Source of the DNA: Eledone cirrhosa | Lineage: Eukaryota | Assembly (NCBI GenBank): GCA_964016885.1 | Contig: OZ024766.1 | Coordinates: forward strand, 20,398,001-20,462,000 | Direction: 5' to 3' | Length of the DNA: 64,000 nt | Shown here: positions 1,023 through 57,469 of the stretch, piece by piece | How positions within the stretch are numbered: the stretch's first letter is position 1 | Layout: every line of letters starts with the position of its first letter | Notes under the pieces: generated by a model | Seen by the model: the letters and a program-made list of their open reading frames with translations, nothing else | Database searches by the model: none | Told to the model about the DNA's origin: nothing | Position numbers and translations under genes: made by a program

Positions 1023-1510
1023 GTGTGGTGACCCTGTGCAGAGAATTGAGCAGTCTGCCCTGGGGTCGGTGTTTGTGTGCACGTTTGGGGGTGCAAAGCA
1101 TGGAGTCTCCGGGTGCAGAAGGACGTACCTCTCCCAGCGGGACCTGCAAGCTCACATCAATCACCGCCACCTGCGACAGGGAGCAGGACCAGAACCTCCT
1201 ACGCAACAATCAAGCTCAAAACCTCAAGGACCTGGGCCAGGCCAGGGTCAGCCGCTGCTGCAGCAAGCCCCGCCGCCGTCATCGTCATCATCATCATCAT
1301 CGTCGTCGTCACAGCAGCAGCAGCAGCAGGGTGTAGGGCTGTCGTCTGTGGCCGGCGGTAGCAGCCAAGCGCCGTCTGGTGGGCAGCAGGGCCAGGGCGG
1401 GGGTGTTGGCGCGGCGGGCCAGGGGCAGGGACACTCTGGGCATCTCCTGGCTCCTCCGCACCACGGCCGAGGTCCTACCCCGGCCCACGCCCACGGCCAC
1501 ATGGCACAGA

Positions 1511-1553
<43 letters not shown>

Positions 1554-3516
1554 ACAGTCACAACAACAACAAAGTAGAACTGGACAACAACAACAACAAC
1601 AACAACAACACCAACAGCAGCAGCAACAACCACCGCCGCAGGGCGTCGTCGTCCACGCGGGGCACCAGCCCGTAGCCAACAGCTACATCGCTGCCCCAAC
1701 CTCGGTGGGGTCTCAGCCCATGTCAGCGCTTGACCTCTTGACCTCGATTAGCCAGCAGCAGCAGCAGCAACAACAACAACAACAACATGAACAGCTTGTG
1801 TACCTGCACCACTCTATGGACGAGTCGCAGATGGTCGCCCAAGCCCCCGGGGGTCCCCCTCCGCCGCTCCTCGCCCTCCCCCACCAGCATCAGCACCACC
1901 ACCAACAGCAGCAGCATTTGCAGGGCCACCCTCCGCCCCTGCCGGGCCACCATGCGCCCGCGGGGGTGGCGATGGTCGGCGGGGGGGCGGGCGGGATGGG
2001 CGTCGCCCCTCCCCTCGTCTCTCCGGCCGGCCCCCTCTCCTCGTCCTCGCCGTCGCCGATCGCCGCCTCCGGCGGGCCGCCGGTCGCCCTGCCCCTGCCG
2101 ACGCCCGTCTCGGTGGGCGGGGCGGTGGGGCCCAACAAGCACGGCGGGGGCCGGGTGATGGCGCCGGGCGGCGGCGCCTCGGGGGGCGGGATGAGCGTGC
2201 CCCCGCCCCTGCCGCAGGCGCCGCCGCCCCACGGCGGGGGCATGCCCCCCCCGCCGCTCCTGCCGCACATGCACAACCACCACCACCACCAGCAGCATCA
2301 GCAGATGTCGGTGGGGCACGACTCGTACCCGATCTCTGCGATCCCCGTCATGTCGAGCGCGTCGAGGACCAACCTGATCACCGTGCCGATCCAGGACGAG
2401 GGCTCGGAGTACGTGGGGCCCCGCGGTGGTGGCCCGGGGGCGGGGGGCGACCCTCAGCTCGCGCCGCCGCCGAACCACCCTCACGGCCCGGCCCACCACC
2501 AACAGCAGCAGCAGCACGGCCCCCCGCCCCCTCAGCACCCCCACCACCCGCACCACCCCCACCAGCAGCACCACCACCACCACCAGCCCCCGGGGCCGGG
2601 CGGCGGGGGCTACCAGGGCTTCGCCCCCAACGCCCCGCCGCCGCCCTTCCCCCCGGGCCACCCGCTGGCGCAGGTCGGCGTCCAGATGCCGCCTTCGTCC
2701 ACTTCGGCGGTGTCGATGCCTTCCCTTTCCCCCCAGGGGATGCCTCCCCCGCCCCCCGTCTCGTACGCGCCGCCCACGTCGTCGGCGGGAGGGGGAGGCG
2801 GCACCAACATGCCGCCGCCGCTGTGTTCGCCCCTCTACTCGTCGCCGCAGGGCTTCCCGCCCCAGGGCGGGGGCGGGCGGCCCCCTCCGCCGCCACAAGC
2901 GGGGTTCCAGGGCGGGGGCGGCGGCGGCGGGCCTCCTCCCCCCCACCACCCGCCCCACGTCATGGTGGGGCACCACCAGGCCCGGGGCGGTGGCGGCGGC
3001 GGCGGCCCGAGGGGCCAGCTGCCCCCGCCGCCGCCCCTCCTGTCGGGCGGCCCGCCCCCCCTCGCCGGCTCGGCGCCCCCGCTCCAGGGCGGCCACGGGG
3101 GCCACCACCCGTCGGGCATGCCCCCGCTGGTCGTCGGCCAGCAGCAGCAGCAGCGCATGGGCATGCCCCCCCACCAGCCGCCCCCGCCGCCGCCCCCTCC
3201 CCCGCCCCACTTTCCGCCCGCCCCCCACGGTGGCCACTACGAGGACGCCCCGCCGCCGCCGCCGCCTCCCCCGCCGCCCCTCGGCGCCGGCTACCCTCCC
3301 CCTCCACCGCAGCAGCAGCAGCAGCCCCCACCGCAGCCGGGCAGCCCCAGGATGGGCTGGGGCGGCGGAGGGCCGATGGCGCCGAGGGGCCCTCACCCGC
3401 GACCGCCGGCCAGCGCTCTGGCCCAGCTACAGCAACAGCAGCAGCAACAACAACAACAGCAACAGGCCCAAAGATCACAATCAGACGGTGGTGGACATTA
3501 CAACCAATACTATTAA
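1023..3516 (+). CDS. CBLL1: E3 ubiquitin ligase Hakai (CBLL1), terminal coding exon: end of the RING/HYB zinc-binding region plus a ~780-aa Q/P/H/G-rich tail
   Basis: A polypyrimidine tract and AG sit at 1021-1022 (phase 2). [10 protein letters not shown]...FVC...[20 protein letters not shown] matches the Hakai HYB motif as I recall it. NLITVPIQD (2371-2397) and the terminal YY also match vertebrate Hakai. Stop TAA at 3514-3516. Upstream exons lie outside the window. Confidence 0.93.
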
Positions 3517-9960: not shown

Positions 9961-11189
9961 TAGCTCCGCTGTGCCATAGTGCGGCACACAAGCTCCTAAT
10001 TTGTTTTACTTTCTCCTCCTCTCTTCTTATACTCTATCACTTCCCTTCTTTCTCTCTCTCTCTCTCTCCTAATCTTGTCTCTTTCCTCCTCTCTCCCCCA
10101 CTCTCACGTCTTCTCTCTCTCTCCCGTCTTCTCCCACACTTTATCCCTCTCGTCATTTTCTCCTCTTCTCTCTCTCTCTACCTCCTACTCTCTCGTCTGC
10201 TTTTCCTTTCTTCCTTCCCTCCTCCCACCACAACTCTCATCCAAATCACGTTCTCTCGTACACACAGACAGACGAGAAATCCCGGCATTTATTATTTACT
10301 ATCAAATAAACCGATAGAAACATGTAATATTCTGTTACTTGTGTAAGAAAGAAACGACTAATATTGGGTGAAAATGAAATAATATGAGTTTAATTTTTTT
10401 TTTAAATCTGAAGATGAATTTTGAAAATAAAAATAGTAAATTTTCCTCGACATATTCATTAATTTAAACTATAAATAACGGTTAATATTGGAGAAAAATG
10501 TATGAATACGATACTAATTTTTTCCTCAAGATATTAATTAATATAATTCGTAGAAAACCACTTAAATTGAGGAAAGATAAAATAATATAAGTTTAATTTT
10601 AAAAAATTTTAAAGATGAATTTTGAAAGAAAAAATACTAAATTTGTCCATCATATTTGTTAATTAATTTAAACTATTGACAAATAATATTATTGGGGGGA
10701 AAATGAAATAATATGTTTAATTTAAAAAAAATCTGAATATGTATTTTGAAATAAACGAAATACTAAATATTTCTGAACATTTATAAACCTTATAAAATGA
10801 TTAAATGGATAAAATACTAAACTTTTTCAAGATATTTTTAATATAAACTAGAAAACGACTTATATGAAAGAATATAATTTTAATTTAAAAAGAAACCTGA
10901 AGGTGAATTTTGAAGAAAAGAAAATAATACTAAATTTTTCTCACCTGAATTAGTTTTTTGTTAAGATATCTATTAATTAATATAAATTATACAAAACAAC
11001 TAAATTAGGGAAATAATGAAATAATATGAGTTTAAATATTTACAAAATCCTGAAGGTGAATTGTGTAAATAAATAAAAAATACTACTTTTCTGAACACAT
11101 TTATTAATTAATTTAAACTATAAAAAGATGTTAGTATTGGCGAAAAATGATAGAAAATTAGCTTAATTAAAAAAAAAATTAATTAATTA

Positions 11190-11521
11190 AAACAATCTTT
11201 CCTTCCCAGCATTCTTTTACGGTGCGGTTTTAGAGATTCTCCGGAACTCTGATCCAGAGAAGACGAAATTACGGTGGGCTTATACAGCTTATCTTAATAT
11301 GTAAGTAGGAAAACCAATCAATCATCTCTTATTTTTTACCGCATTCGATCTATTAGACATCGTAGATCGATTCTGACTAATTTTTATCGATCCACGACTA
11401 TGATTTCTATGATAATTTCGAGCTTATTAACAGCATAGTAAGCTTCACTTCCGTTTCTCTTCGCCATTTTTATTCACCTTCATTCAACATGTGTGTGTGT
11501 AAACAGTTGTTTTGATTTCTG
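11190..11521 (+). promoter_or_regulatory. Candidate promoter plus non-coding first exon for the DD41D transposase-derived gene
   Basis: CpG-containing island after an AT-rich block. It has an ETS-like CACTTCCG (~11446), a YY1-like CGCCATTTT (11462), several ATCGAT motifs, and a donor CTG|GTAATG at 11521/11522. The link to the 15701 acceptor is inferred. Confidence 0.5.
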
Positions 11522-11656
11522 GTAATGGCGACGACTGTGGAAGGCAATGTTGGTGGGGAAGGGCTCTTCGTCGCTTCTCATTTAGATGATGAAATATTTA
11601 GGGTTTTCGCAGGCCCTTTATTAATGGTGATATTATTAAATGGTAGAATATTGTGA

Positions 11657-11780
11657 GGGGTGCGTGGCTGAGTGGTTAGAGAGTTGGTTTGGCAGGGGTG
11701 AGGTCGTGAGTTCGATTCAGGGACCGGACCGGGTGCTGTGTTGGGTCCTTGGTCCCATTTAACGAGATCCACTTCACAGG
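11657..11780 (+). mobile_element. tRNA-derived SINE head (family B; degenerate minus-strand copies at ~53500-53575 and ~58830-58925)
   Basis: A-box TGGCTGAGTGG and B-box GAGTTCGATTC, followed by a GTGTTG.GTCCTTG core-like segment. Confidence 0.7.
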
Positions 11781-11800
11781 GGGTCTTACTTGTTCCTATG

Positions 11801-11832
<32 letters not shown>

Positions 11833-12061
11833 GGAACAAGTATGTCCCCGACGGCAGAGCTCTAGCTGTATGACTGGGAACTTGTCGACCGATCAGAGCA
11901 ATATGTATATATGTATATATATGTATATGTATATGTATATATATATGTATATATATATATATGTATGTATATATATATGTATATATATATGTATATATAT
12001 ATATATGTATGTATATATATATGTATATATATATGTATATATATATATATGTATGTATATA

Positions 12062-12094
<33 letters not shown>

Positions 12095-12105
12095 GTATGT
12101 ATATA

Positions 12106-12136
<31 letters not shown>

Positions 12137-12163
12137 GTATGTATATATATATGTATATACACA

Positions 12164-12200
<37 letters not shown>

Positions 12201-12210
12201 GTATATACAC

Positions 12211-12272
<62 letters not shown>

Positions 12273-12369
12273 GTATGTATATATATATATGTATATATAC
12301 GTGGGAGAACGGACGTAAAACGGTGATGCTGTACATATATATATATATATGTACATATATATATATATA

Positions 12370-14035
12370 TACAGCATCACCGTTTTACGTCTGTTCTTCC
12401 ACGCTAGCATGGGTTAGACGGGTTGTCCTGTTGTGGGCAGTGTCTGGTCGGCTGACCTTGTCTTGCTCATACAGGAACTGATTTGGCTTGATTTCTACAG
12501 CTGGATGCCCTCCCTAACACCAACCTCATTTACAGTGAGTGCTGGGTGCTTTATTTGCCGTGGCACCTCCACGACCACTTTACAGTGAGTGCTGGGTGCT
12601 TTTTTGCTGTGGCACCTCCACGACCTCTTTACAGTGAGGGCTGGGTGCTTTTTTTGCCGTGGCACCTCCACGACCACTTTACAGTGAGTGCTGGGTGCTT
12701 TATTTGCCGTTGCACCTCCACGACCACTTTACAGTGAGGGCTGGGTGCTTTTTGCCGTGGCACCTCCACGACCACTTTACAGTGAGTGCTGGGTGCTTCT
12801 TTGCCGTGGCACCTCCACGACCACTTTACAGTGAGTGCTGGGTGCTTCTTTGCCGTGGCACCTCCACGACCACTTTACAGTGAGTGCTGGGTGCTTTATT
12901 GCCGTGGCACCTCCACGACCACTTTACAGTGAGTGCTGGGTGCTTTTTTGCCGTTGTACCTCCACGACCACTTTACAGTGAGTGCTGGGTGCTTTTTTGC
13001 CGTGGCACCTCCACGACCCCTTTACAGTGAGTGCTGGGTGCTTTTTTGCCGTGGCACCTCCACGACCACTTTACAGTGAGTGCTGGGTGCTTCTTTGCCG
13101 TGGCACCTCCACGACCACTTTACAGTGAGTGCTGGGTGCTTTTTTTGCCGTGGCACCTCCACGACCTCTTTACAGTGTGGGCTGGGTGCTTTTTTTGCCG
13201 TGGCACCTCCACGACCACTTTACAGTGAGTGCTGGGTGCTTTTTTGCCGTGGCACCTCCACGACCACTTTACAGTGAGTGCTGGGTGCTTTTTTGCCGTG
13301 GCACCTCCACGACCACTTTACAGTGAGTGCTGGGTGCTTTTTTGCCTTGGCACCTCCACGACCACTTTACAGTGAGTGCTGGGTGCTTTTTTGCCGTGGC
13401 ACCTCCACGACCCTCTTTACAGTGAGTGCTGGGTGCTTTTTTGCTGTGGCACCTCCACGACCTCTTTACAGTGAGTGCTGGGTGCTTTTTTGCCGTGGCA
13501 CCTCCACGACCACTTTACAGTGAGTGCTGGGTGCTTTTTTGCCGTGGCACCTCCACGACCACTTTACAGTGAGTGCTGGTGCTTTTTTGCTTGGCACCTC
13601 CACGACCACTTTACAGTGAGTGCTGGGTGCTTTTTTGCCGTGGCAACCTCCACGACCTCTTTACAGTGAGTGCTGGGTGCTTTTTTGCTGTGGCACCTCC
13701 ACGACCTCTTTACAGTGAGTGCTGGGTGCTTTTTTTGCCTGGCACCTCCACGACCACTTTACAGTGAGTGCTGGGTGCTTTTTTGCTGTGGCACCTCCAC
13801 GACCTCTTTACAGTGAGTGCTGGGTGCTTTTTTTGCCGTGGCACCTCCACGACCTCTTTACAGTGAGTGCTGGGTGCTTTTTTGCCATGGCACCTCCACG
13901 ATCACTTTACAGTGTGGGCTGGGTGCTTTTTTGCCGTGGCACCTCCACGACCACCTTGCAGTGTGGGGTGTGGGGGCATATTGTCTATATGCTTCAGCTT
14001 GTACCCATGGGAGGTTGGGTACTCTGTATTACATA
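12370..14035 (-). mobile_element. SINE-like element (AGGAAGGGCATCCAGCTGTAGAAA family) containing a ~29-copy 49-bp internal tandem array (12530-13955)
   Basis: Same body as the single-unit copy at 61860-62010 and the arrayed copy at 21866-23025. Confidence 0.8.
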
Positions 14036-14491
14036 TATATATATATATATAGGAACAAGTATGACCTCGACAGCTAGATCCGAAAAAGCTTGAGCTCTGC
14101 CGTCGGAGTCTTGAATCTTTGTGTGTATATATATATATATCGGCGAGTCTACGATTTCCCGCCTTCACTATACACCAATGTATTTACGGGTCACTTTCAC
14201 AACCTTTTAGACCTGTATTAGTTGGAGTGAGGTCATATATTTTGTCGTTCCTGGGGTTTTTAACCCTAGGACAGGAAAATGCTTCTCTGATGATCGTTGC
14301 TTTTCCATTAATATCCTCGTGATATTTTATGTTTTGCAACGTGAAACTGTACAGTAAGGGCCATTAGAATAGGTAAATATTTATATTATATTTTTTAATT
14401 TTGATTGTATATTAATTTTAATTTATTTTGAAAAATTGATTAAATTTTACTTGTTCTGCTTATCTTGATATATATATATATATATATATAT

Positions 14492-15545
14492 AAAACCATA
14501 TTTATTTCGTTATATATATTTCAGGGATATCATATTAATAATATGTTATGCCATCTTCAGACAAAATACAATATAAACAGTCTTATAAATAAATAAATAA
14601 TGGAATGTTTTAATGGAGTGCTTTTATATCAGTTATATATATAAAACCATATTTATTTCGTTATATATATTTCAGGGATATCATATTAATAATATGTTAT
14701 GCCATCTTCAGACAAAATACAATATAAACAGTCTTATAAATAAATAAATAATGGAATGTTTTAATGGAGTGCTTTTATATCAGTTATATATATAAAACCA
14801 TATTTATTTCGTTATATATATTTCAGGGATATCATATTAATAATATGTTATGCCATCTTCAGACAAAATACAATATAAACAGTCTTATAAATAAATAAAT
14901 AATGGAATGTTTTAATGGAGTGCTTTTATATCAGTTATATATATAAAACCATATTTATTTCGTTATATATATTTCAGGGATATCATATTAATAATATGTT
15001 ATGCCATCTTCAGACAAAATACAATATAAACAGTCTTATAAATAAATAAATAATGGAATGTTTTAATGGAGTGCTTTTATATCAGTTATATATATAAAAC
15101 CATATTTATTTCGTTATATATATTTCAGGGATATCATATTAATAATATGTTATGCCATCTTCAGACAAAATACAATATAAACAGTCTTATAAATAAATAA
15201 ATAATGGAATGTTTTAATGGAGTGCTTTTATATCAGTTATATATATAAAACCATATTTATTTCGTTATATATATTTCAGGGATATCATATTAATAATATG
15301 TTATGCCATCTTCAGACAAAATACAATATAAACAGTCTTATAAATAAATAAATAATGGAATGTTTTAATGGAGTGCTTTTATATCAGTTATATATATAAA
15401 ACCATATTTATTTCGTTATATATATTTCAGGGATATCATATTAATAATATGTTATGCCATCTTCAGACAAAATACAATATAAACAGTCTTATAAATAAAT
15501 AAATAATGGAATGTTTTAATGGAGTGCTTTTATATCAGTTATAAA
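14492..15545. repeat. 151-bp AT-rich tandem repeat, 7 near-identical copies
   Basis: Periodicity is directly visible. The array end (15520-15585) resembles 50918-50985, which suggests a dispersed-repeat origin. Confidence 0.92.
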
Positions 15546-15666
15546 TATTTACTCGTTGTTAACCCAACAATTTAAATATAACTTTCCATGTATATATATA
15601 TATATATATATACATATATACATGGTGACCCAAAATAATGTATACACACTTCAAGAGCAGATAACT

Positions 15667-15697
<31 letters not shown>

Positions 15698-15727
15698 CAG
15701 ATTTTATCCATCCCATCAGAATTAAAA

Positions 15728-16927
15728 ATGACTTCGGAATTAAAAATGCCTTCAGAATTAAAAATGCCTTCAGAATTAAAAATGCCTTCAGAATTAAACA
15801 TGACTTCAGAATTAAACATGACTTCAGAATTAAACATGACTTCAGAATTAAACATGACTTCAGAATTAAAAATGACTTCTTCAAGACTTAGCAACGAACA
15901 GAGAGAATTTATCCTAAACTGTTACTGGAAATATGAAAACAAGGCTGATGTTCAGAGGCAGTATAGAAGGGAGTTCCAGTCAGATCCCCCTACGAGGGTC
16001 ACCATCTCTCGAATCATTAAGAAGTTTGAAACTCATGGAACTGTCCAGAATCTGCACAAGAACCGTTCCGGAAGACGACGGAGCTCAACCAACCTGAGAA
16101 CTGAAGAACTGGTGCTGGAAAGCTTTCAGAAGTACCCTGGTATATCCCTGCGACAGGCTAGCCGCGAGGCTGGCATTTCTAAAACATCTGTCCATCGTAT
16201 TTTAAAGCGCTGCAACTGGAACAGCTATGTCCCCGCGCTGGTCCACGCCATCAACGAGGACGACCCCGACAGAAGAATGGAGTTTTGCGAATGGTATTTG
16301 GGTAAATGTCTAGAGGATTCTCGCTTCTCCACGAAGGTTGTGTGGAGCAATGAGGCTATATTTAAATTAAATGGTTCCATCTATCGTCACAATTGCACTT
16401 ATTGGGGGCCGGATAACCTGTACAATCATGAAGACGATATACCAGGGGTGAGTGTGTGGTGTGGTCTTACATCCAGGGGTTTAATCGGCCCGTTCTTTTT
16501 CGATATCATCGTCAGCGGTCTGGTTTATTTAAACATGCTACAGCATTCGGCGATGCCGTGCATCATGGAAATGTTTCAATACGAGGAGTTCCACTTTCAG
16601 CATGACGGCGCCGCCCCGCATTTCCACCCTGACGTGCGATCCTACCTTAACGCCGTCCTGCCAAACAGGTGGATCGGTAGAAGGGGTTTCCTAGAGTACC
16701 CTCCGCGGTCGCCCGACCTCACGCCTCTAGATTTTTTCCTATGGGGTTACTTAAAAGAGAAGGTGTACGCTACAAAACCAGGAACGGTTGATCAACTTAG
16801 AATTGCCATTGAACGAGAGTGCTCTCAAATACCTAAAGAGATGCTTATTGACGCTACTAATTCCATCTATTCCCGCTGCCAACAGTGCGTTGACCAGCAA
16901 GGGTATCAGTTTGAAAACATACAATGA
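15728..16927 (+). CDS. DD41D-type transposase-derived protein (N-terminal HTH DNA-binding region plus DDD domain); first catalytic D replaced by N
   Basis: Uninterrupted 399-aa ORF with motifs WSNEAIF / FQHDGAAPH / [16 protein letters not shown]. There are 41 residues between the 2nd and 3rd Asp. Poly-T + CAG acceptor at 15699-15700. N-terminal 18-bp (M[T/P]SEL[K/N]) x8 repeat. Confidence 0.85.
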
Positions 16928-16947
16928 CAAGACGTTAGAAAAATGCG

Positions 16948-17880
16948 TTAACCCTTTAGCATTTACATTACTCTATATATACTATTGTATTTTCACGGTG
17001 AAGGTTTTACCTCACATAATATCGAATCTATGAGATTTTGATGTTATTTATCTTGAGAAAAATACCTTAACATCAGTATGAGTGGCCAGTTTGAATAGAA
17101 AGAGGTGAGAGAATTCTGGCCAGATATGACAGGCTTAACCCTTTAGCATTTACATTACTCTATCTATATTATTGTATTGTCACAGTAAAGGCTTTATCCC
17201 ACATAATACCTCACATAACATTTACATTACTCTATATATACTATTGTATTTTCACGGTGAAGGCTTTACCTCACATAATATCTACATTACTCTATATATA
17301 CTATTGTATTGTCACAGTAAAGGCTTTACCTCACATAATATCTCACATAACACTTACATTACTCTATATATACTATTGTATTTTCACGGTGAAGGCTTTA
17401 CCTCACATAACATTTACATTACTCTATATATACTATTGTATTGTCACAGTAAAGGCTTTACCTCACATAATACCTCACATAACATTTACATTACTCTATA
17501 TATACTATTGTATTTTCACGGTGAAGGCTTTACCTCACATAATATCTCACATAACATTTACATTACTCTATATATACTATTGTATTTTCACAGTAAAGGC
17601 TTTACCTCACATAATATCTCACATAACATTTACATTACTCTATATATACTATTGTATTTTCACGGTGAAGGCTTTACCTCACATAACATTTACATTACTC
17701 TATATATACTATTGTATTTTCACGGTGAAGGCTTTACCTCACTTAATATCGATTCTATGAAATTTTGATGTTATTTATCTTGAGAACAATACCTTAACAT
17801 CAGTATGAGTGGCCAGTTTGAATAGAAAGAGGTGAGAGAATGCTGGCCAGATACAGCCTGTTTAAATGCTAAAGGGTTAA
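16948..17880. mobile_element. piggyBac-type MITE(s) with internal tandem amplification (other copies at ~54437-54645, ~59175-59243, ~62728)
   Basis: TTAA-CCCTTTAGCATTT ... AAATGCTAAAGGG-TTAA termini. A second left end starts at 17135. Confidence 0.8.
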
Positions 17881-17884
17881 CTTG

Positions 17885-18230
17885 TGACTGCTATGTATAT
17901 TTTACACAGCTACAGTTGCTGTGTTGCTGTGTATATTTTACACAGCTACAGTGGCTGTGTTGACTGCTGTGTATATTTTACACAGCTACAGTGGCTGTGT
18001 TGACTGCTGTGTATATTTTACACAGCTACAGTTGCTGTGTTGACTGCTGTGTATATTTTACACAGCTACAGTTGCTGTGTCTATTTTACACAGCTACAGT
18101 TGCTGTGTTGACTGCTGTGTCTATTTTACACAGCTACAGTTGCTGTGTTGACTGCTGTGTCTATTTTACACAGTTACAGTTGCTGTGTTGACTGCTGTAT
18201 ATATTTTACATAGTTACAGTTGCTGTGCTG
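17885..18230. repeat. ~41-bp tandem repeat (ATTTTACACAGCTACAGTTGCTGTGTTGACTGCTGTGT)
   Basis: Periodicity is directly visible. Confidence 0.85.
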
Positions 18231-18346
18231 GATTTTTTCTTTTTTTTTTTCCAGTAAAATTATTATTTTTTTAAACGAACATTTATTAACAACATATATC
18301 TGAATGATTGACAAATGTCACATCAATAGACTAGTAACGCCATCTA

Positions 18347-18857
18347 GCTTTGAAGTTATGAACTGTTGGAAGGAGTTCATAACTTTGAAGTTATGAACTG
18401 TTGGAAACCAGTTCATAACTTTGAAGTTAGGGACTGTTGGAAAGGAGTTCATAACTTTGAAGTTATGGACTGTTGGAAAGGAGTCCATAACTTTGAAGTT
18501 AGGGACTGTTGGAAAGGAGTCCATAACTTTGAAGTTATGGACTGTTGGAAAGGAGTCCATAACTTTGAAGTTAGGGACTGTTGGAAAGGAGTTCATAACT
18601 TTGAAGTTATGAACTGTTGGAAAGGAGTTCATAACTTTGAAGTTAGGGACTGTTGGAAAGGAGTTCATAACTTTGAAGTTAGGGACTGTTGGAAAGGAGT
18701 TCATAACTTTGAAGTTATGAACTGTTGGAAAGGAGTTCATAACTTTGAAGTTAGGGACTGTTGGAAAGGAGTCCATAACTTTGAAGTTAGGGACTGTTGG
18801 AAAGGAGTTCATAACTTTGAAGTTAGGGACTGTTGGAAACCAGTTCATAACCTTGAA
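18347..18857. repeat. 36-bp tandem repeat containing the palindrome (TTCA)TAACTT-TG-AAGTTA(TGAA)
   Basis: Periodicity is directly visible. The long ORFs here are repeat artefacts. Confidence 0.9.
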
Positions 18858-18928
18858 ACAGGTTAGGACAAATTCTCTCGTCTGCAACAATGAAGAAGTT
18901 AAAAAAAATTCTGTTTTATATGCATCAC

Positions 18929-19692
18929 TGGTGGATTGACAGTATAGGTAGAGGGTCGGATGCTATGCTTTGTAGCATAGAGCTGTGGCCCTTTGCAGTC
19001 TGAGTTCAAATCCCGCCGAGGTCAACTTTGCCCTTTCGTCCTTACCGGGGTCGATAAAATGAAGTACCAGTAATGCACTGGGATAATTGCTGGCCTTGTG
19101 CCAAAAAGTAGAAACAATTATTACGGGGTCAGTAATATAAAGTACCAGTAATACACTGGGGTAATTGCTGGCCTTGTGCCCCCCTAAAGTAGAAACAATT
19201 ATTACGGGGTCAGTAATATAAAGTACCAGTAATACACTGGGATAATTGCTGGCCTTGTGCCCCCCAAAAGTAGAAACAATTATTACGGGGTCGATAAAAT
19301 TAAAGTACCAGTAATACACTGGGGTAATTGCTGGCCTTGTGCCCCCAAAAAGTAGAAACAGTTATTACGGGGTCTGTAAAATAAAGTACCAGTAATACAC
19401 TGGGATAATTGCTGGCCTTGTGCCCCCCAAAAGTAGAAACAATTATTACGGGGTCGATAAAATTAAAGTACCAGTAATACACTGGGGGTAATTGCTGGCC
19501 TTGTGCCCCCCAAAAGTAGAAACAATTATTACGGGGTCAGTAATATAAAGTACCAGTAATACACTGGGGTAATTGCTGGCCTTGTGCCCCCCAAAAGTAG
19601 AAACAATTATTACGGGGTCGATAAAATTAAAGTACCAGTAATACACTGGGGTAATTGCTGGCCTTGTGCCCCCCTAAAGTAGAAACAATTAT
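18929..19692 (+). mobile_element. SINE family A with its 3' ~81-bp segment amplified ~8 times
   Basis: B-box GAGTTCAAATCC at ~19002. Matches the reverse complement of 7070-7262. Confidence 0.85.
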
Positions 19693-19839
19693 TTAAATTA
19701 TGCAAACATTTTTAGGGGTTTACATGCAACTGAATGTGTGTAGTTCCTTTTTATTTTTGGGAAAGGCTGTGTATTCAAATAAATATTGCCTGACTAGGCA
19801 ATCAAAGTGTGTATACATTATTTTGGGACATCCTGTATA

Positions 19840-25830: not shown

Positions 25831-26956
25831 TTTAACCCCCATGATCGTGAAGAATGAGAAAAAAAATGATGAAAATATAGAATGTATTTTAAAGATATTT
25901 GTAAATTTAAACAGTAGAAAACGTCTTATATAGGGGAAAGATAAAATAATGAAGAGTCAATTTTAGAAAAAATTTAGAGATGAATTTTGAAAAAAATAAT
26001 ACTAAATTTTTTCAACATACTTATTAATTAATTTAAACCATACAAAACAACTAATATTCGGTAGAAATGAAATGATTTAACTTTAATTTATAAAAAAAAT
26101 ATTCAAAGTTGAATTTTGAAAAAAAAAAACAACTGAATTTTTCTCAAGATATTTATTAATTATTTTAAACCATAGAAAAAGATTAATATTGAGGACAAAT
26201 GAAAGAATTTAACTTTAATTTATAAAAAAATTCACAGATGAATTTTGAAATAAAAAATACTAAATTTTTCTCAACATATATATTACGTTAGACTATACAA
26301 AACTCTTAATATTGGGTAAAAAGGAAATAATTTGAGATTAATTTATAAAAATACTAAATTTTTCTTAACATATTTAAACGAAAGAAAACGGGGAAAACGA
26401 GTGAATAAGATACTAATTTTTTCTCGACATATTTATTAATATCAATCGTAGAAAACGACTTTAAGGAGTCAATTTAGAAAAAATTTAGAGATGAATTTCG
26501 AAAAATAAAAAAAATGAATTTTTCTCAAGATATTTATTAATTACTTTAAACCCTACAAAAAGATTAATATAGAAGATAAATGAAATAATTTAACCTTAAT
26601 TTATAAAATATTTCACAGATGAGTTTTTAAAGGAAAAAATACTAAATTTTTCTCAACATATTTAAACGAAAGAAAACGGGGAAAACGAGTGAATAAAATA
26701 CAAATTTTTTCTTAACATATTTATTAATATAAATCGTAGTACATGACTTATATAGGGGAAAGATGAAATAATTAGGGGTCAATTTCAGAAAAAATATAGA
26801 GATGAATTTTGAAAAATAAAAAAAATTAATTTTTCTTAACATATTTATTAATTAATTCAAACTATACAGAACGACTTATATTAAGGATAAATAAAATAAT
26901 TTGTGTTTAACTAATAAAAATATTCAAAGATGAATTTTAAAGGAAAAATTTAGTGA

Positions 26957-27480
26957 AACAATCTTTCCTTCCCAGCATTCTTTTACGTGAGACGCGCGCG
27001 GTTTTAGAGATTCTCCGGAACTCTGATCCAGAGAAGACGAAGTCACGGTGGTGGGTTATACAGTTTATCCTAATATGTAAGTATGAAAATCAATCAATCA
27101 TCTCTTATTTTTTACCGTATTCGATCTATTATACATCGTAGATCGATTCCGAGTAATTTTCATCGATCAACCACTTTGATTTTTATGATTATTTATGGCC
27201 AGATGCTGGTTTTCGATGTTGCCGCCGCGATTGCTTTTAAGCTGCTGGTATGGCGCGGGTTTTTTCTTTTTTTTCACTAACGATCATCCCACTCGGAAAG
27301 ATCGATCAATCATCTGCCATTTTAATTAAATAATTATTCATCTTTTTCCTACATGTATTCCTTCATCTTCTCTCCTACCGGATGATTGTCTTTAGTGTGG
27401 TTTTATGGACGATTTAGCCGGATTACATTATGGAGGATTAATGGATGGATGGTGTACAAGGTATAATGGCGGTCGGTGAC
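26957..27480 (+). promoter_or_regulatory. Second copy of the 11190-11410 promoter-like block, with a candidate first exon (donor at 27247/27248)
   Basis: A ~230-bp paralogous block preceded by a similar AT-rich repeat region. It has CTG|GTATGG, plus YY1-like GCCATTTT and AATGGCGG downstream. Confidence 0.45.
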
Positions 27481-27704
27481 AAATGCCAGTGACACCTTGT
27501 CTTTCTTTAAACATAATAACCGCCTTTCCTTCATTATTTCTGCCATTAATATAATTATTCTTATTCCGTATATATTTTATCATCTTATCTATTTATATAT
27601 GTATATAAATATATTTATCTAATGCCGTCATTTGTAGAAATATATTTATAGAAAAATGTCCATCTCGACATTTAAAAAAAAAAAAAAAATCTCCTTTTTC
27701 GTCC

Positions 27705-41080: not shown

Positions 41081-41269
41081 CAGAGAGATTGTGTGTCCCC
41101 AAAACATGTATAGATGCTTTGATTATCTATACAGGCCAATCAATATTGATTAGAATGCTGTTGAAGTGTGTATACATTATTTCGGAACACTGTGTGCTAC
41201 TACAGTTAGAAGCGAAGCACTTAATGCTGTTACGAGAGAGTATATATACACACACACACATATATATAT

Positions 41270-47236: not shown

Positions 47237-47433
47237 GTAATGTCTTCAATTTTATACACTCTTTAGGCATGTATGTATATATATATACACACAGATCGAT
47301 GGCTGTGTAGAAAAAAAAATGGCTACTTGTGTATAGATTGGTGAGAAAAATTAGATTTTTCAAGCTACGTTTTTTTAATTCTCTTCATTTTCTGCTTGTG
47401 TAAGATTAATTTTTTTTCGTCTTATATATATAG

Positions 47434-48959: not shown

Positions 48960-48993
<34 letters not shown>

Positions 48994-51817
48994 TGTGTCC
49001 CCCTAAAAATGTATACATACTGCAACAGCTTTGTAACAAATGTGTGTATACATTTTTTGGGGACAGCCACTATGTATTTAGGTTTAATATAATCATCTGT
49101 TAACGGTTGTCCATCTTATATCTTAAGTGGTTGAGTATTCCGTGGAAATGTGTACCATTATCGTCTTTTAGGTTATTTTACGCACGTATCCTGTAATGCA
49201 AACTGTTACATACATTTGTTATGTTACGTCCCTGGGTTCAAACATCCTTACTGGGTCGATAAAATAAAGTACCAGTAATACACTGGGGGTGTATTTAACG
49301 GACTTTTCCGCTCACTGAAAATCGTTGGCCTTAAACCCTTTTATTTGTAAGTGTTAGGGTTTGGACGGACGATCGTAATTACGAGGGTTGAGTCGGTCTT
49401 AGGACCCCCGGGGAAATATATTAATATATTGCAATGTGTATCGAGAGTTGTGGTGTTTTGTGGCATAGAGTTACGGCTCTTTACGTTTAGTGTGCTGAAA
49501 AGCCGCAGGGGTTAGCTTTGCCTTTTATATCCTTTGAAACGAAGTACCAGTAATGCACTGATCTTGTGCCTAAATCAAACCTTTATTATTAAGGATGAGG
49601 CATTGATAGAGATGGGTAGAGCGTCGGACATGGAGCTATTCCCGCCGAGGTTAACTTTACCTTTCATTCTTACGGGGGTCGATTAAAGTACCAGTAATAC
49701 ACTGGGGTAATTGCTGGCCTTGTGTGCCCCCAAAAGTAGAAACAGTTATTAAAGATGAGGCATTGACAGAGATCCGGTAGAGCGTCGGAAATGGAGCTAT
49801 TAGTATTTTACGCATATTCCGATTGTATACTTTCTCCATTATATATATATGTTAGTGTTGGAGAGGGGGGGGTAGTGGCGTGGTAGATCGTAATTACGGT
49901 GGTAAGTGGTGGGGTCGGTACTTCAATTAAGAGTCCCCTCTCAACACCCCTAGAGATAGGAAGTGGAATCGGCTAACAGGTTAAATTGGGAATTTTTATA
50001 TTGGCAGCAATATCGATCGATCTTGCTAGTGTTGAATTTTATATTTTCGAACGTAATATCTTGTGAGGTATTGTAGCAAATCGTTTTAAATTTCCACATA
50101 ATCGATATATATGTGTGTGTGTGTATGTGTATGTATATATATGTGTGTGTGTGTGTGTATGTATATATAATTACAACAGGCAGAAACAGGTATTCGAGTT
50201 TCGTTAAATTAGGATGGGTTCAGTTGAAAACAGGTTAGTTACTTAACTACTTGATATTAGAGGTAGTAGTCTGGGCTTAGCTGTTGAAACGGCAAGAGCT
50301 CAGCCGTCGGGTACCGACTTTTTACGATGTATATATAAAAATATATATATATACACTATCTATCTATACACACACATATTTATGTATGTATGTATGTATG
50401 TATGTATGTGTGTGTGTGTGTGTATAGATAGATATTCAAATAAGGTTTGAAAAAATATGAAAATTAAAGGGGGTAGGTTGGAAAGCCTGAATAGAAGCGG
50501 AGTATGTGATCCACAAAATCAATAGTACAAGTAGTGGCTTATATTTGACAGGAAGTGTTAGGTTTGCTGGTCTATTGAACGCACCCCCTAGATATAAAAT
50601 AAAAAAAGCTGGGTTGCGTCCCCTGCTTCCCTTTTTTTTGTTTGTTGTTTTTTCTTTTCTTCCCCCTTACAAAAATAAAGGGAGGTAACAACATTGCGTG
50701 TATATTTTATAAATATACATACACATATATATATATTATATATGTGTGTGTGTCTATATACATACATATACAATATATTAATAAATGGAAACTATATTTA
50801 TAAAACTGCACCATAATTTGCCTTGGTTTTCCTTGAAATATATATAACAAAACAAATATGGTTTTATAAATATAGTTTCCATTTATTAATATATAGTGTA
50901 TTTACTCCACTAACTTGTTGAGTGCTTTATATCGGTTATACATTTTTTAAGCTTGTTGAATCCCAACAAATTAAATATAACCTTTACATATATATTTTAG
51001 CGTCTGAAAAGTTAAGACCCTCTTCCTGCTATTTCAAGCGTTTAACTAATATATTCCTTCTATATACTGTATAGTTTGTGTTACTTTGGTTTACCTTTTA
51101 TATATATACAAATATATATATATATATAGTAATAATAATAAATGTGAAGACTAAAATCCAAGGAGGGCTCGATGAGGATAAATATCAGATATATAAGAAC
51201 CTAGAGCAAATATTGATTAAAATAAGATTAAAGTTTAAGCAAAGAATTGCTGCTTTCACCCTTAACCCAGAAGATCCCGTTAAGGGTGAAAGCACCAATT
51301 CTTTGCTTAAACTTTAATCTGTTATTTTTTAATAATATATTTATATATGTGGGTTAGGTATGGAAGGGGACAGCACTCTACTCACTGTAAATGTGGTTGT
51401 CATTAGGAAGGGCATCCAGATGTAGAAACCCAAGTCCAAATAAGTTCTGTATAAGCAAGGGCATCCAGATGTAGAAACCTAAGTCCAAATAAGTTCTGTA
51501 TAAGCAAGGGATAGTCACCGGGCCTGCCATATCATGTTAGCGTGGGGAACTGGACGTTGAACGGTGATGATGTTGCTGCTGGGCTGAAGATGTGCCAAGA
51601 AATTGTAGTGGAAGTTACAATAGGGGAATACCTGGGCAGGGGTGGTGAGTACTGAACCGAGGTGTTGGAGTTCACACGGTAGAGATGCTGGGCTGAAAAG
51701 GGCCTGTGGTCAAATGCAGAAGCAGGCGTGTTTTTGATGGTGATGGTGGTTGTGTGTATGGTGGACGAATGGTTTGTTTTGTCACTAAATTCCTCTCTAT
51801 TTCTTTCTTGTTGCAGA

Positions 51818-51950: not shown

Positions 51951-52483
51951 GTAAGTGTTTATGAAGAATTTTAAGGGATTTGGTAAAATTATTTCATTAC
52001 TAAGATAGTAACTTGATGTAATGTTCTTATATAAAGTTGTTGGAAGATTTTAATTTAAATAAGAACCCTTTATTTCATTACTAAGTAACTTAATTCAAGG
52101 GTCTTATGTAAATTTTTTAGAAGATTTTGATTTTGTATGCATGCTTCAACAGCATTCTGATAATTATTACCTTTACAGGTAATCATTGTGTGTATACCTT
52201 TTGGGGGGGGACCCTGTATGTATATACAGTTCAGTAAGAGGAAGACATGGTTACCCGTCTCAAACTGGATAAGCCATCTAACATGCTAGCGTGGAAGATG
52301 GATGTTAAACGATGATGATATATATATACTTTGTTGAAGGGCCTTGGTCTATATAGGATGTAAACAGATTAAATGCCATTTGTAAACAATTATTTGCAAT
52401 GTTTGTTGGTGTTTCTGGGTTGGGGGTAATTTTCTTGTGTTTTCCTACCTCGTTTCTAATGTTTTTCCGCCTCTTCATTGCAG

Positions 52484-56369: not shown

Positions 56370-56415
<46 letters not shown>

Positions 56416-56560
56416 CTTTCCTTTGTGACCCTTGTTGGAGTGAGAGGAGAGGGTTTTGTGGGCCTTGTTTGCTTTCAAATATACCTTTTAAATATATTGT
56501 TCATTGCTTTTTATTTGTATCCCATGTACATGTGTGTATATATATATGTATCTTTATATA

Positions 56561-56658
56561 CAGGGTGCCCCAAAAATGTATACATACTTCAACAGCTAAT
56601 AAATATTGAATATTGCCTGTACAGGTAATCAAAGTATACATTTTTTTAGGACACCCTG
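56561..56658. mobile_element. ~100-bp Tc1/mariner-type MITE related to the ends of the DD41D element (relatives at ~41090-41193, 48991-49066, ~52140-52216)
   Basis: TA-CAGGGTGCCCCAAAAATGTATAC ... GTATACATTTTTTTAGGACACCCTG. Both subterminal sequences match 15621-15665 and 19780-19835. Confidence 0.75.
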
Positions 56659-57469
56659 TGTATGTACACATATACACACGCACACACCTTATCATTTATG
56701 TGTATGTATAAATATATATATATATTACACACCTTATTTATGTGTGTATATATAAATATATATGCACATACACACATCATTTATCTGTATATTAAATTGT
56801 AAACACGTGTTGATCTTATCTTCTATATCTAAGAATGTTTTGTGTTGCTGGGCACTTATTTTTCTCTTTTCCTTGTATAATAATCCTGCCATCAACATAT
56901 TTCTATTGAAATGAAATTCTCCCCTATGTCTTTTAACAATCAAACCAGGCCTTTCATAACGAGTTTTTCCATTCTTAATTAAGCTGGTGTTTGGAAAATA
57001 ACAAAATATTCTTAAATTTTTTCATGGGAGCAGTTTAAAAAAAAAAAAGAAAATTAACTTTAATTCTGAGCTTTTTTTCTCTCTCTCTCTCTTTAATTTG
57101 GGTTTCGCTGTATATTTATATATGAGATGTATATATACTTATACATGTGTGTATCAGTGGCGACTGCAGGTTTTGGGGTTACTCGGGCATAGCTTGTATG
57201 GGAGGGTGGGTCCATCTATGAAGTCTTGCTTTGAAACAGGTGTATATCTCGGAACAGAGTAAGAGAGTGACTACTTACTGAGTAAATTAGGAAGATGGCC
57301 ATGTAGCCGGTCCCGGTTAAATAGACTCCCAGGTCACCACGAGTTGCAGCCTTTTACAGTCTGGGTTCAGACAGTTTGAAATCTTTTCCACCATCAATTG
57401 TTATTTAAAAAAAAGCTAAAATCATTTGATTGTTCATTCATAACATATGTTGCACTTTAGTTACACATA

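Follow-up and report, generated by a model that had tools for sequence, protein, structure and literature searches.

SETMAR (Metnase), the Hsmar1-derived gene of primates, carries an Asp-to-Asn replacement at the third position of its catalytic triad. It is described as the one intact transposase left with thousands of terminal inverted repeats (TIRs) (PMC9062482) and as being under purifying selection across the whole protein (PMC8994322). Here we describe a comparable locus in Eledone cirrhosa, in a window of 64,000 nucleotides (the whole stretch analysed; positions 20398001-20462000 of contig OZ024766.1, 1.9 Mb from the end of this 22.4-Mb contig, in a genome of 3.0 Gb). The window encodes an intact transposase of a DD41D (rosa/Visitor-type) Tc1/mariner element, and we consider it rather probable that this is a young stand-alone host gene, formed by the one unbroken copy found of an extinct DD41D family, whose protein is predicted to bind TIRs without cutting them.

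The locus shares with SETMAR a single intact transposase amid many TIRs, constraint on the whole protein, an Asp-to-Asn change and a fold match to the catalytic domain. It differs in being DD41D rather than DD34D, in changing the first rather than the third Asp, in having both TIRs in place and in that TIR binding is only predicted; no SET or other fused host domain was found in the open reading frame (ORF). The pogo-derived genes TIGD, JRK and CENP-B are likewise stand-alone transposase genes with altered triads (DD34N/DD30N, Ka/Ks 0.055-0.21; PMC7386202), but they are of pogo origin, old, common to many species and without TIRs, whereas the window gene keeps its ends and no orthologue was found among the matches listed. 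The TLEWI genes of bivalves (DD36E) are low-copy, Tc1-like, linked to splicing and proposed to be co-opted (bioRxiv 10.1101/656579); their ORFs are interrupted by introns, TIRs are mostly missing and cephalopods were not found to have them, whereas the window ORF is one exon with its putative intron 5' of the ORF. Octopus co-options of CENPB, THAP, Psq, ZBED and FHY3 have been listed, with no DUF4817 among those listed (PMC10027918), and most of the Tc1/mariner-pogo domestications described are old pogo genes or SETMAR (PMC7386202). No report of a DD41D domestication was found in the literature; the main DD41D (Visitor) paper lay outside this search and may mention host-kept copies.

The element resembles DD41D/rosa/Visitor elements in its TA flanks, its ~353-aa core, its ancestral length of ~1.25 kb and its short TIR (31 bp here, 27-32 bp in aphid rosa elements, PMC5490172). 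Its own features are the single copy, 2.75 kb of nested insertions, an N-terminal 6-aa repeat, a strengthened acceptor and an Asn in place of the first Asp of the triad. Domesticated transposases usually lose TIRs and target duplication (bioRxiv 10.1101/656579). Here both TIRs and the TA remain, which is consistent with a young event.

The reading frame and its conservation

15728-16927, forward strand: intact 399-codon transposase ORF with a DUF4817 helix-turn-helix (HTH), a second HTH and a DDE fold
15716-15879, forward strand: 18-bp unit repeated 9.1 times, which amplifies the ancestral context of the start codon in frame

The ORF runs without any internal stop, and its 351-aa core starts at 15872. 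The 18-bp array encodes the first 48 aa, an M-T/P-S-E-L-K/N tail that is predicted with low confidence (predicted local distance difference test score, pLDDT, 30-43). Profile matches to DUF4817 and HTH domains were detected, and a bipartite HTH and an RNase H-like DDE fold are present. The predicted structure has a mean pLDDT of 70.5, and both model and profile match the catalytic domains of Mos1, Sleeping Beauty and SETMAR (template modelling score, TM, to the target 0.71-0.82).

A six-frame genome search gave at least 124 matches and a DNA search at least 94, many of them from one tandem array. Among these, the window copy is the only close copy without stops; the best of the others shares 73% identity with it across the ORF, and no sibling exceeded 77% over long stretches among the DNA matches. 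Near-identical mobile copies, named in the sequence-only reading as evidence against domestication, were not among them. From the match lists we picked 19 other family loci, all dead, and built a majority consensus from them. They lie 3-9% from this consensus with a pooled ratio of nonsynonymous to synonymous substitution rates (dN/dS) of 0.92. Across 3,831 codons they have collected 71 stops and 53 frameshifts, which amounts to 11.4 lesions for each ORF length.

The catalytic triad is N208 (motif WSNE, codon AAT at 16349-16351), D293 and D335, and 41 residues separate the last two, as in the definition of DD41D. Of 22 aligned homologues, 21 have Asp at the first position, and the remaining one, from lobster, likewise reads WSNE. 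The dead copies have GAT at this codon in 9 of the 12 that cover it. The change from WSDE to WSNE and the resulting N-D41-D triad, proposed from the sequence alone, are thereby borne out. Since a complete D-D-D triad is absent, the copy is derived from the DD41D family and is not an active member of it. In DDE/D enzymes the first Asp is a metal ligand. Invariant residues near the triad are also altered (N170Y, P182L, a 3-aa deletion and P250A); an in-frame 9-bp deletion follows 16423, and the indels relative to the consensus are +3, -9 and the 18-bp amplification. The recognition-helix regions of both HTHs are little changed, and the HTH2 helix is unchanged. Plain CpG decay as the origin of the Asn (consensus context AGT-GAT) was not supported, and neither was an imprint of A-to-I editing on the copy (A>G 28 versus T>C 31).

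The window copy lies 22.8% from the consensus. It carries none of the roughly 8-11 lesions expected, in line with the intact frame noted earlier. Synonymous sites differ at a proportion (pS) of 0.63 and nonsynonymous sites (pN) at 0.117, and dN/dS is 0.09 (bootstrap 0.05-0.14), far below 1 and below the ~0.9 of the dead siblings. Because dS is GC-biased, we split the substitutions by mutation class: pN/pS is 0.37 for GC-neutral changes (p 7e-4), 0.33 for strong-to-weak changes (S>W) and 0.11 for weak-to-strong changes (W>S), each significantly below 1, and the dead copies are near 1. We also defined 121 conserved positions, kept by 90% or more of the 30 best homologues. The window copy changes 12 of these 121 and 77 of the 232 other positions (p 7e-7), whereas the dead copies do not discriminate (14.4% of conserved versus 15.1% of other sites changed). 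A test independent of dS gives the same direction: the 12 conserved-site changes (~9.5 allowing for lineage variation), if owed to neutral decay and scaled by the ratio seen in dead copies, predict 6-8 lesions, and the probability of seeing none is 0.002-0.0004. Both alleles in one sample carry the ORF, and they differ by a synonymous change (16501 C>T) and at one site past the stop.

Constraint is spread over the protein. The DDE domain has a pN of 0.114 versus 0.104-0.14 for the HTHs, with conserved sites changed at 8 of 89 versus 4 of 32, so the expectation that the protein kept its HTH and lost catalysis does not hold at domain level, where DDE fold and HTHs are equally constrained. Because the copy is single and intact, has a low dN/dS and has been spared at conserved residues, we hold it highly probable that the host maintains the ORF. 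The sequence-only reading had proposed a domesticated transposase made by splicing a host-type non-coding exon into a transposon; copy number, dN/dS and the absence of lesions speak for the domestication, and the host origin of the upstream island, constraint on the HTH alone and TIR decay as its marks were not sustained.

In a protein tree of 42 rows (the window copy, the consensus and 40 of the 120 listed homologues, with no named VS or rosa reference element), the window copy is sister to the dead consensus (support 100/99), with a branch of 0.31 versus 0.04. There are 54 derived residues in the window copy and 9-11 in the consensus. The best homologues among the matches listed are 67% identical (a spider cluster and a sea spider), followed by horseshoe crab, lizard, lobster, loris and bat proteins, and an Atlas search returned transposase clusters only. 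The single-member annotated DD41D proteins of lobster (P0020), anole (P0010), loris (P0021) and horseshoe crab (P0016) have 7-11 conserved-site departures, the lobster protein with WSNE as well, and are possible parallel domestications.

Synonymous acceleration and alternative readings

Synonymous sites have changed far more than the element's non-coding ends, with differences at 63% of synonymous sites versus 10-12% of the ends; dS is 1.37 versus 0.08 for the dead copies. From consensus to window copy, GC content at third codon positions (GC3) rises from 0.34 to 0.54 and the number of CpGs from 24 to 53. The synonymous changes exceed those of dead copies 19-fold for W>S, 8-fold for GC-neutral and 2.7-fold for S>W changes. 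Elsewhere GC3 is 0.25-0.42 in HSP70-family exons, ~0.25 in short CBLL1 exons and 0.34 and 0.46 in CNBP exons. The last exon of CBLL1/Hakai (1023-3516), ~2.5 kb of repeats encoding Gln, Pro, Gly and His, has a GC3 of 0.84, and the short exons upstream of it are AT-rich. We prefer an insertion somewhat older than the burst of the family, after which the long exon would have undergone GC-biased conversion or codon selection. Synonymous recoding against small-RNA silencing was considered and rejected: stretches identical to the consensus are not shortened relative to codon shuffles (longest 20 versus 21.7 expected), and a literature search on recoding to escape small-RNA silencing found nothing. 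A metagenome scan for a DNA outgroup to polarise the synonymous changes returned one distant locus (46%).

Several observations weigh against a host gene that reads the family's ends. dN/dS was measured against a within-genome consensus of dead copies, and dN (0.127) is close to local neutral divergence (window MITEs, miniature inverted-repeat transposable elements, 14-17%), which makes the low ratio dependent on a dS that is very high and GC-biased. The non-coding ends of the element are only 10-12% off the consensus (5 of 48 and 18 of 147 nt). The 9-11 residues derived in the consensus place the split of the window copy before the burst, and part of the selection signal may date from its life as an active transposon. 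With ~20 copies open to chance survival the lesion test weakens to about 0.01-0.04, and the database homologue P0007 has an open frame despite 14 conserved-site departures. No orthologue appeared among the near-length, longer, shorter and representative matches listed, in which full-length identity reaches 67% at best, and no cephalopod name among the 120+1+120 listed. Four conserved positions are also changed in the DNA-binding half (K11E, K15N, S87Y and K90I in consensus numbering), and two inner positions set the copy's own TIR apart from the common one (21 exact matches versus 789), so that binding to the bulk of the MITEs is not assured.

In an alternative that we judge unlikely, the ORF is a lone insertion from a later, separate invasion by a sister DD41D lineage, its low dN/dS was earned as a mobile element in another, GC-richer host and its frame has so far stayed open by chance. 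A dS of 1.37 versus 0.08 is most simply a long separate history, and the residues derived in the consensus, the two changes common to both TIRs and absent from the common TIR, and a TIR pair closer than any of 30 other pairs all fit such an origin, as do nearest homologues from spiders, sea spider and horseshoe crab, which are expected of a horizontally moving family. However, 12 conserved-site changes including the catalytic Asp (median ~3 in 30 homologues) imply 6-8 lesions and none is seen; non-coding ends 88-90% identical to the resident family are hard to reconcile with dS above 1; and no sibling above 77% over long stretches accompanies it among the at least 94 DNA matches. The same W>S-biased excess divergence is seen 4 kb upstream in an unrelated MITE fragment, which points to a local cause. 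The divergence of the element's non-coding parts agrees with that of three alignable family MITEs in the window, at 14-17% (a fourth, poorly aligned, 34%), where the mean on C1 is near 7%.

A further alternative, which we find a little more doubtful still, accepts that the host keeps the gene and takes its product to be a residual nuclease, a DNA-repair or scaffold protein or a non-specific DNA binder rather than a TIR-directed regulator. In its favour are a constraint on the DDE domain equal to that on the HTHs, the retention of D293 and D335, and a predicted fold that matches the catalytic domains named above (TM 0.71-0.82). Set against this, the first Asp, a metal ligand, is lost, N170Y, P182L, the 3-aa deletion and P250A hit neighbouring invariant residues, and the HTH2 helix and the copy's own inner TIRs are unchanged.

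Candidate splice signals, upstream island and surroundings

15665-15669, forward strand: CTCAT, branch-like
15669-15697, forward strand: T29 tract
15698-15700, forward strand: CAG, acceptor-like
11522-15700, forward strand: candidate intron of 4.2 kb, holding a tRNA-like head of a short interspersed element (SINE), (TA)n at 11901-12299, a 49-bp array at 12529-13963, a 151-bp array at 14483-15548 and the left TIR
11428-11650, forward strand: fragment of a ~690-bp TTAA-flanked MITE, with a candidate non-coding exon 1 ending at 11521
11190-11418, forward strand: CpG-rich block with two ATCGAT motifs, candidate upstream promoter, 88% identical to window 26956-27194

No acceptor-like site in the 64 kb ranks above 15665-15700 by pyrimidine count. 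The CTCAT, the run of about 30 T and the CAG noted earlier are all present. The family consensus has a shorter pyrimidine tract and the same CAG, 22 nt before the ATG (now 27), so the acceptor came with the transposon and the T29 tract alone is new; its growth also creates the CTCAT match. A 5-nt duplication put the acceptor in phase 0 with the ORF, the frame is open for 9 codons, and nine in-frame ATGs follow directly. Three contig sets, their kind unrecorded, each span 15845-16973 in one piece (one, from a second sample, comprises only 88 million letters); contigs are silent on RNA level and strand. A T48 run at 56372-56419, past the CNBP exons, has no AG after it; long T runs arise here without an acceptor too.

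The phase-0 acceptor would also suit the ORF as an alternative last exon of CBLL1 (Hakai), a host-transposase fusion to which the 11.4-kb island is irrelevant and for which SETMAR is a precedent (PMC9062482), but this is very improbable, since, although the acceptor is open for 9 codons (ancestral spacing 22 nt, now 27) and a phase-0 donor follows the CBLL1 exon ending in YGRM, the donor before the last CBLL1 exon is in phase 2 and would break the frame, a phase-0 route would have to leave out two exons across ~19 kb and halve the RING domain, nine in-frame ATGs lie directly past the acceptor, and no fused homologue of this make-up was found among longer proteins (one match listed, so that this point is weak evidence).

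The upstream island had been read as a host-type promoter with YY1 and ETS motifs and a GT donor. The motifs are there (ACTTCC(G) at 11447, CGCCAT at 11462, GT at 11522 and ATGGCG at 11525); its host-type origin was not upheld, since the consensus of the dispersed MITE (46 genome matches) already holds both YY1-like motifs, CGCCATTTT and AAAATGGCG. The island is a fragment of this MITE, which we take to be piggyBac-like from its TTAA ends. CGCCATTTT (11462) and ATGGCG (11525) are inherited, and ACTTCCG (11447) and GT (11522) are newly gained, by the changes ACTTTCG to ACTTCCG (ETS core) and GAAAATGG to GGTAATGG (donor). The island copy has diverged by 25% (24 W>S and 11 S>W changes), versus 6-12% in 11 of its 12 siblings (the twelfth is partly misaligned); it kept three of six alignable CpGs, and the observed/expected CpG ratio is 1.3-1.7 at 11101-11550. 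The donor at 11522 scores 6 of 9 on a crude consensus, similar to several neighbours. As far as sequence can tell, these changes fit an exapted promoter and first exon that may splice to 15701. A coding first exon from the MITE ATG (34 codons, phase 0, weak GTGATA donor) was set aside, its peptide being not conserved and frameshifted relative to its family.

The CpG-rich block beside the fragment, whose ATCGAT motifs are presumably DRE-like, has no genome match besides window 26956-27194. Window 25900-27560 holds a duplicate of the AT-rich repeat and CpG block at 10300-11418, followed by a unique CpG-rich stretch (27170-27560) to which no gene is assigned and which is possibly another promoter or a far first exon of CNBP. 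CNBP has its own candidate 5' exon near 47237 with the same GTAATG donor, and therefore does not need the island.

1023 onwards, forward strand: last exon of Hakai/CBLL1, with a zf_Hakai match
15621-15651, forward strand: left TIR, 31 bp, preceded by TA at 15619-15620
16948-17880, no strand assigned: very-high-copy TTAA-flanked MITE with internal tandem amplification, inserted 20 nt past the stop
17885-19693, no strand assigned: 40-bp and 36-bp satellites and a SINE-like element with an 81-bp tandem tail
19688-19835, forward strand: 3' end of the element, 18 of 147 nt off the family consensus, with AATAAA at 19778 and the right TIR
19805-19835, forward strand: right TIR, 31 bp, followed by TA
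51818 onwards, forward strand: coding part of the CNBP-like zinc-knuckle gene

The element itself extends over 15621-19835 between two TA dinucleotides; the span first proposed (11190-19835) contains it together with 4.4 kb that lie upstream. It sits between the last exon of Hakai/CBLL1 and the CNBP-like gene, all three on the forward strand, and no tRNA genes were found in the window. The MITE, SINE and satellites described earlier are indeed all present between the stop and the right TIR. The TIR pair is mismatched at positions 3, 5 and 8, that is, three times in the outer 8 nt as claimed, and the inner 23 nt are identical. Each of 30 other family pairs has an edit distance of 1-9, with no identical pair among them; this pair is therefore not unusually decayed, and its mismatches do not suit a reading of age. 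The clustering of mismatches at the tips is a weak sign of selection, as other pairs likewise differ most in the outer part.

The family left many MITEs of 79-101 bp. The 21-nt word of its left end has at least 2,094 exact genome matches and the 25-nt TIR word 789, with 0 for reversed controls. A TIR subfamily matching the window copy was not found, and the 19 other exact matches of its TIR are unpaired. Four MITEs of the same family lie in the window (41085-41205, 48985-49080, 52150-52225 and 56555-56665), the one at 41 kb having the AAATAATG TIR variant in common with the ends of the gene. Family TIR words are repeated over ~100 kb in a tandem array at C2:40673996-40773516, and a 51-bp ORF fragment of the family forms another at C17:4896135-4905359. 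The SINE-like tail joins the element at a ATTATTTAAATT word in three independent copies (window 19670-19700 and the 3' ends at L034 and L046), which suggests a target preference.

A second single-copy intact DD41D-like ORF (349 aa, 31% identical to the window ORF) was detected at C6:85483244-85484290 (L020:1504-2550). It keeps the three Asp with a spacing of 42, acceptor-like TTTCAG sites precede it, its next best DNA match is 67% over 339 nt, and no TIR was found for it; we regard it as a second domestication candidate. Long open DD41D-like frames of 307 and 286 aa at L015 and L026 belong to distant subfamilies.

Proposed origin and significance

If the ORF is a stand-alone host gene, its origin may be pictured as follows. 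The element would have inserted 4 kb downstream of a promoter-like patch composed of the duplicated CpG-rich block and the piggyBac-like MITE fragment. Transcription would start in this composite 11.4-kb patch, and the new GT at 11522 would splice to the transposon's own acceptor, later strengthened to T29. The protein may act as a dimer through its retained DDE fold and bind family TIRs, its own two included, without cutting, much like the MAR half of SETMAR but standing alone. Its first role would probably have been a brake on the family, and it may now serve as a sequence-specific chromatin or transcription factor at MITE ends. The identical inner parts of its own TIRs would suit autoregulation, and they also fit conversion or youth.

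More tentatively, the locus could be a lineage-specific regulatory gene built nearly entirely of transposons, with promoter and exon 1 from a MITE and acceptor and coding exon from DD41D. Its catalytically dead product would then read thousands of MITE ends, a SETMAR-like network in an invertebrate; its synonymous sites would have been rewritten towards GC ~10 times faster than the flanks after it became an exon, and its TIR cores would be kept as autoregulatory sites.

The locus offers a natural experiment on the speed at which a new long exon acquires GC-rich third positions. The observation is real, and the ORF is probably a young domesticated transposase with an unusually complete record of its parts. 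In such a young case, with an ancestor that can be reconstructed from dead siblings, TIRs in place and traceable splice signals, the steps of gene birth can be tested singly.

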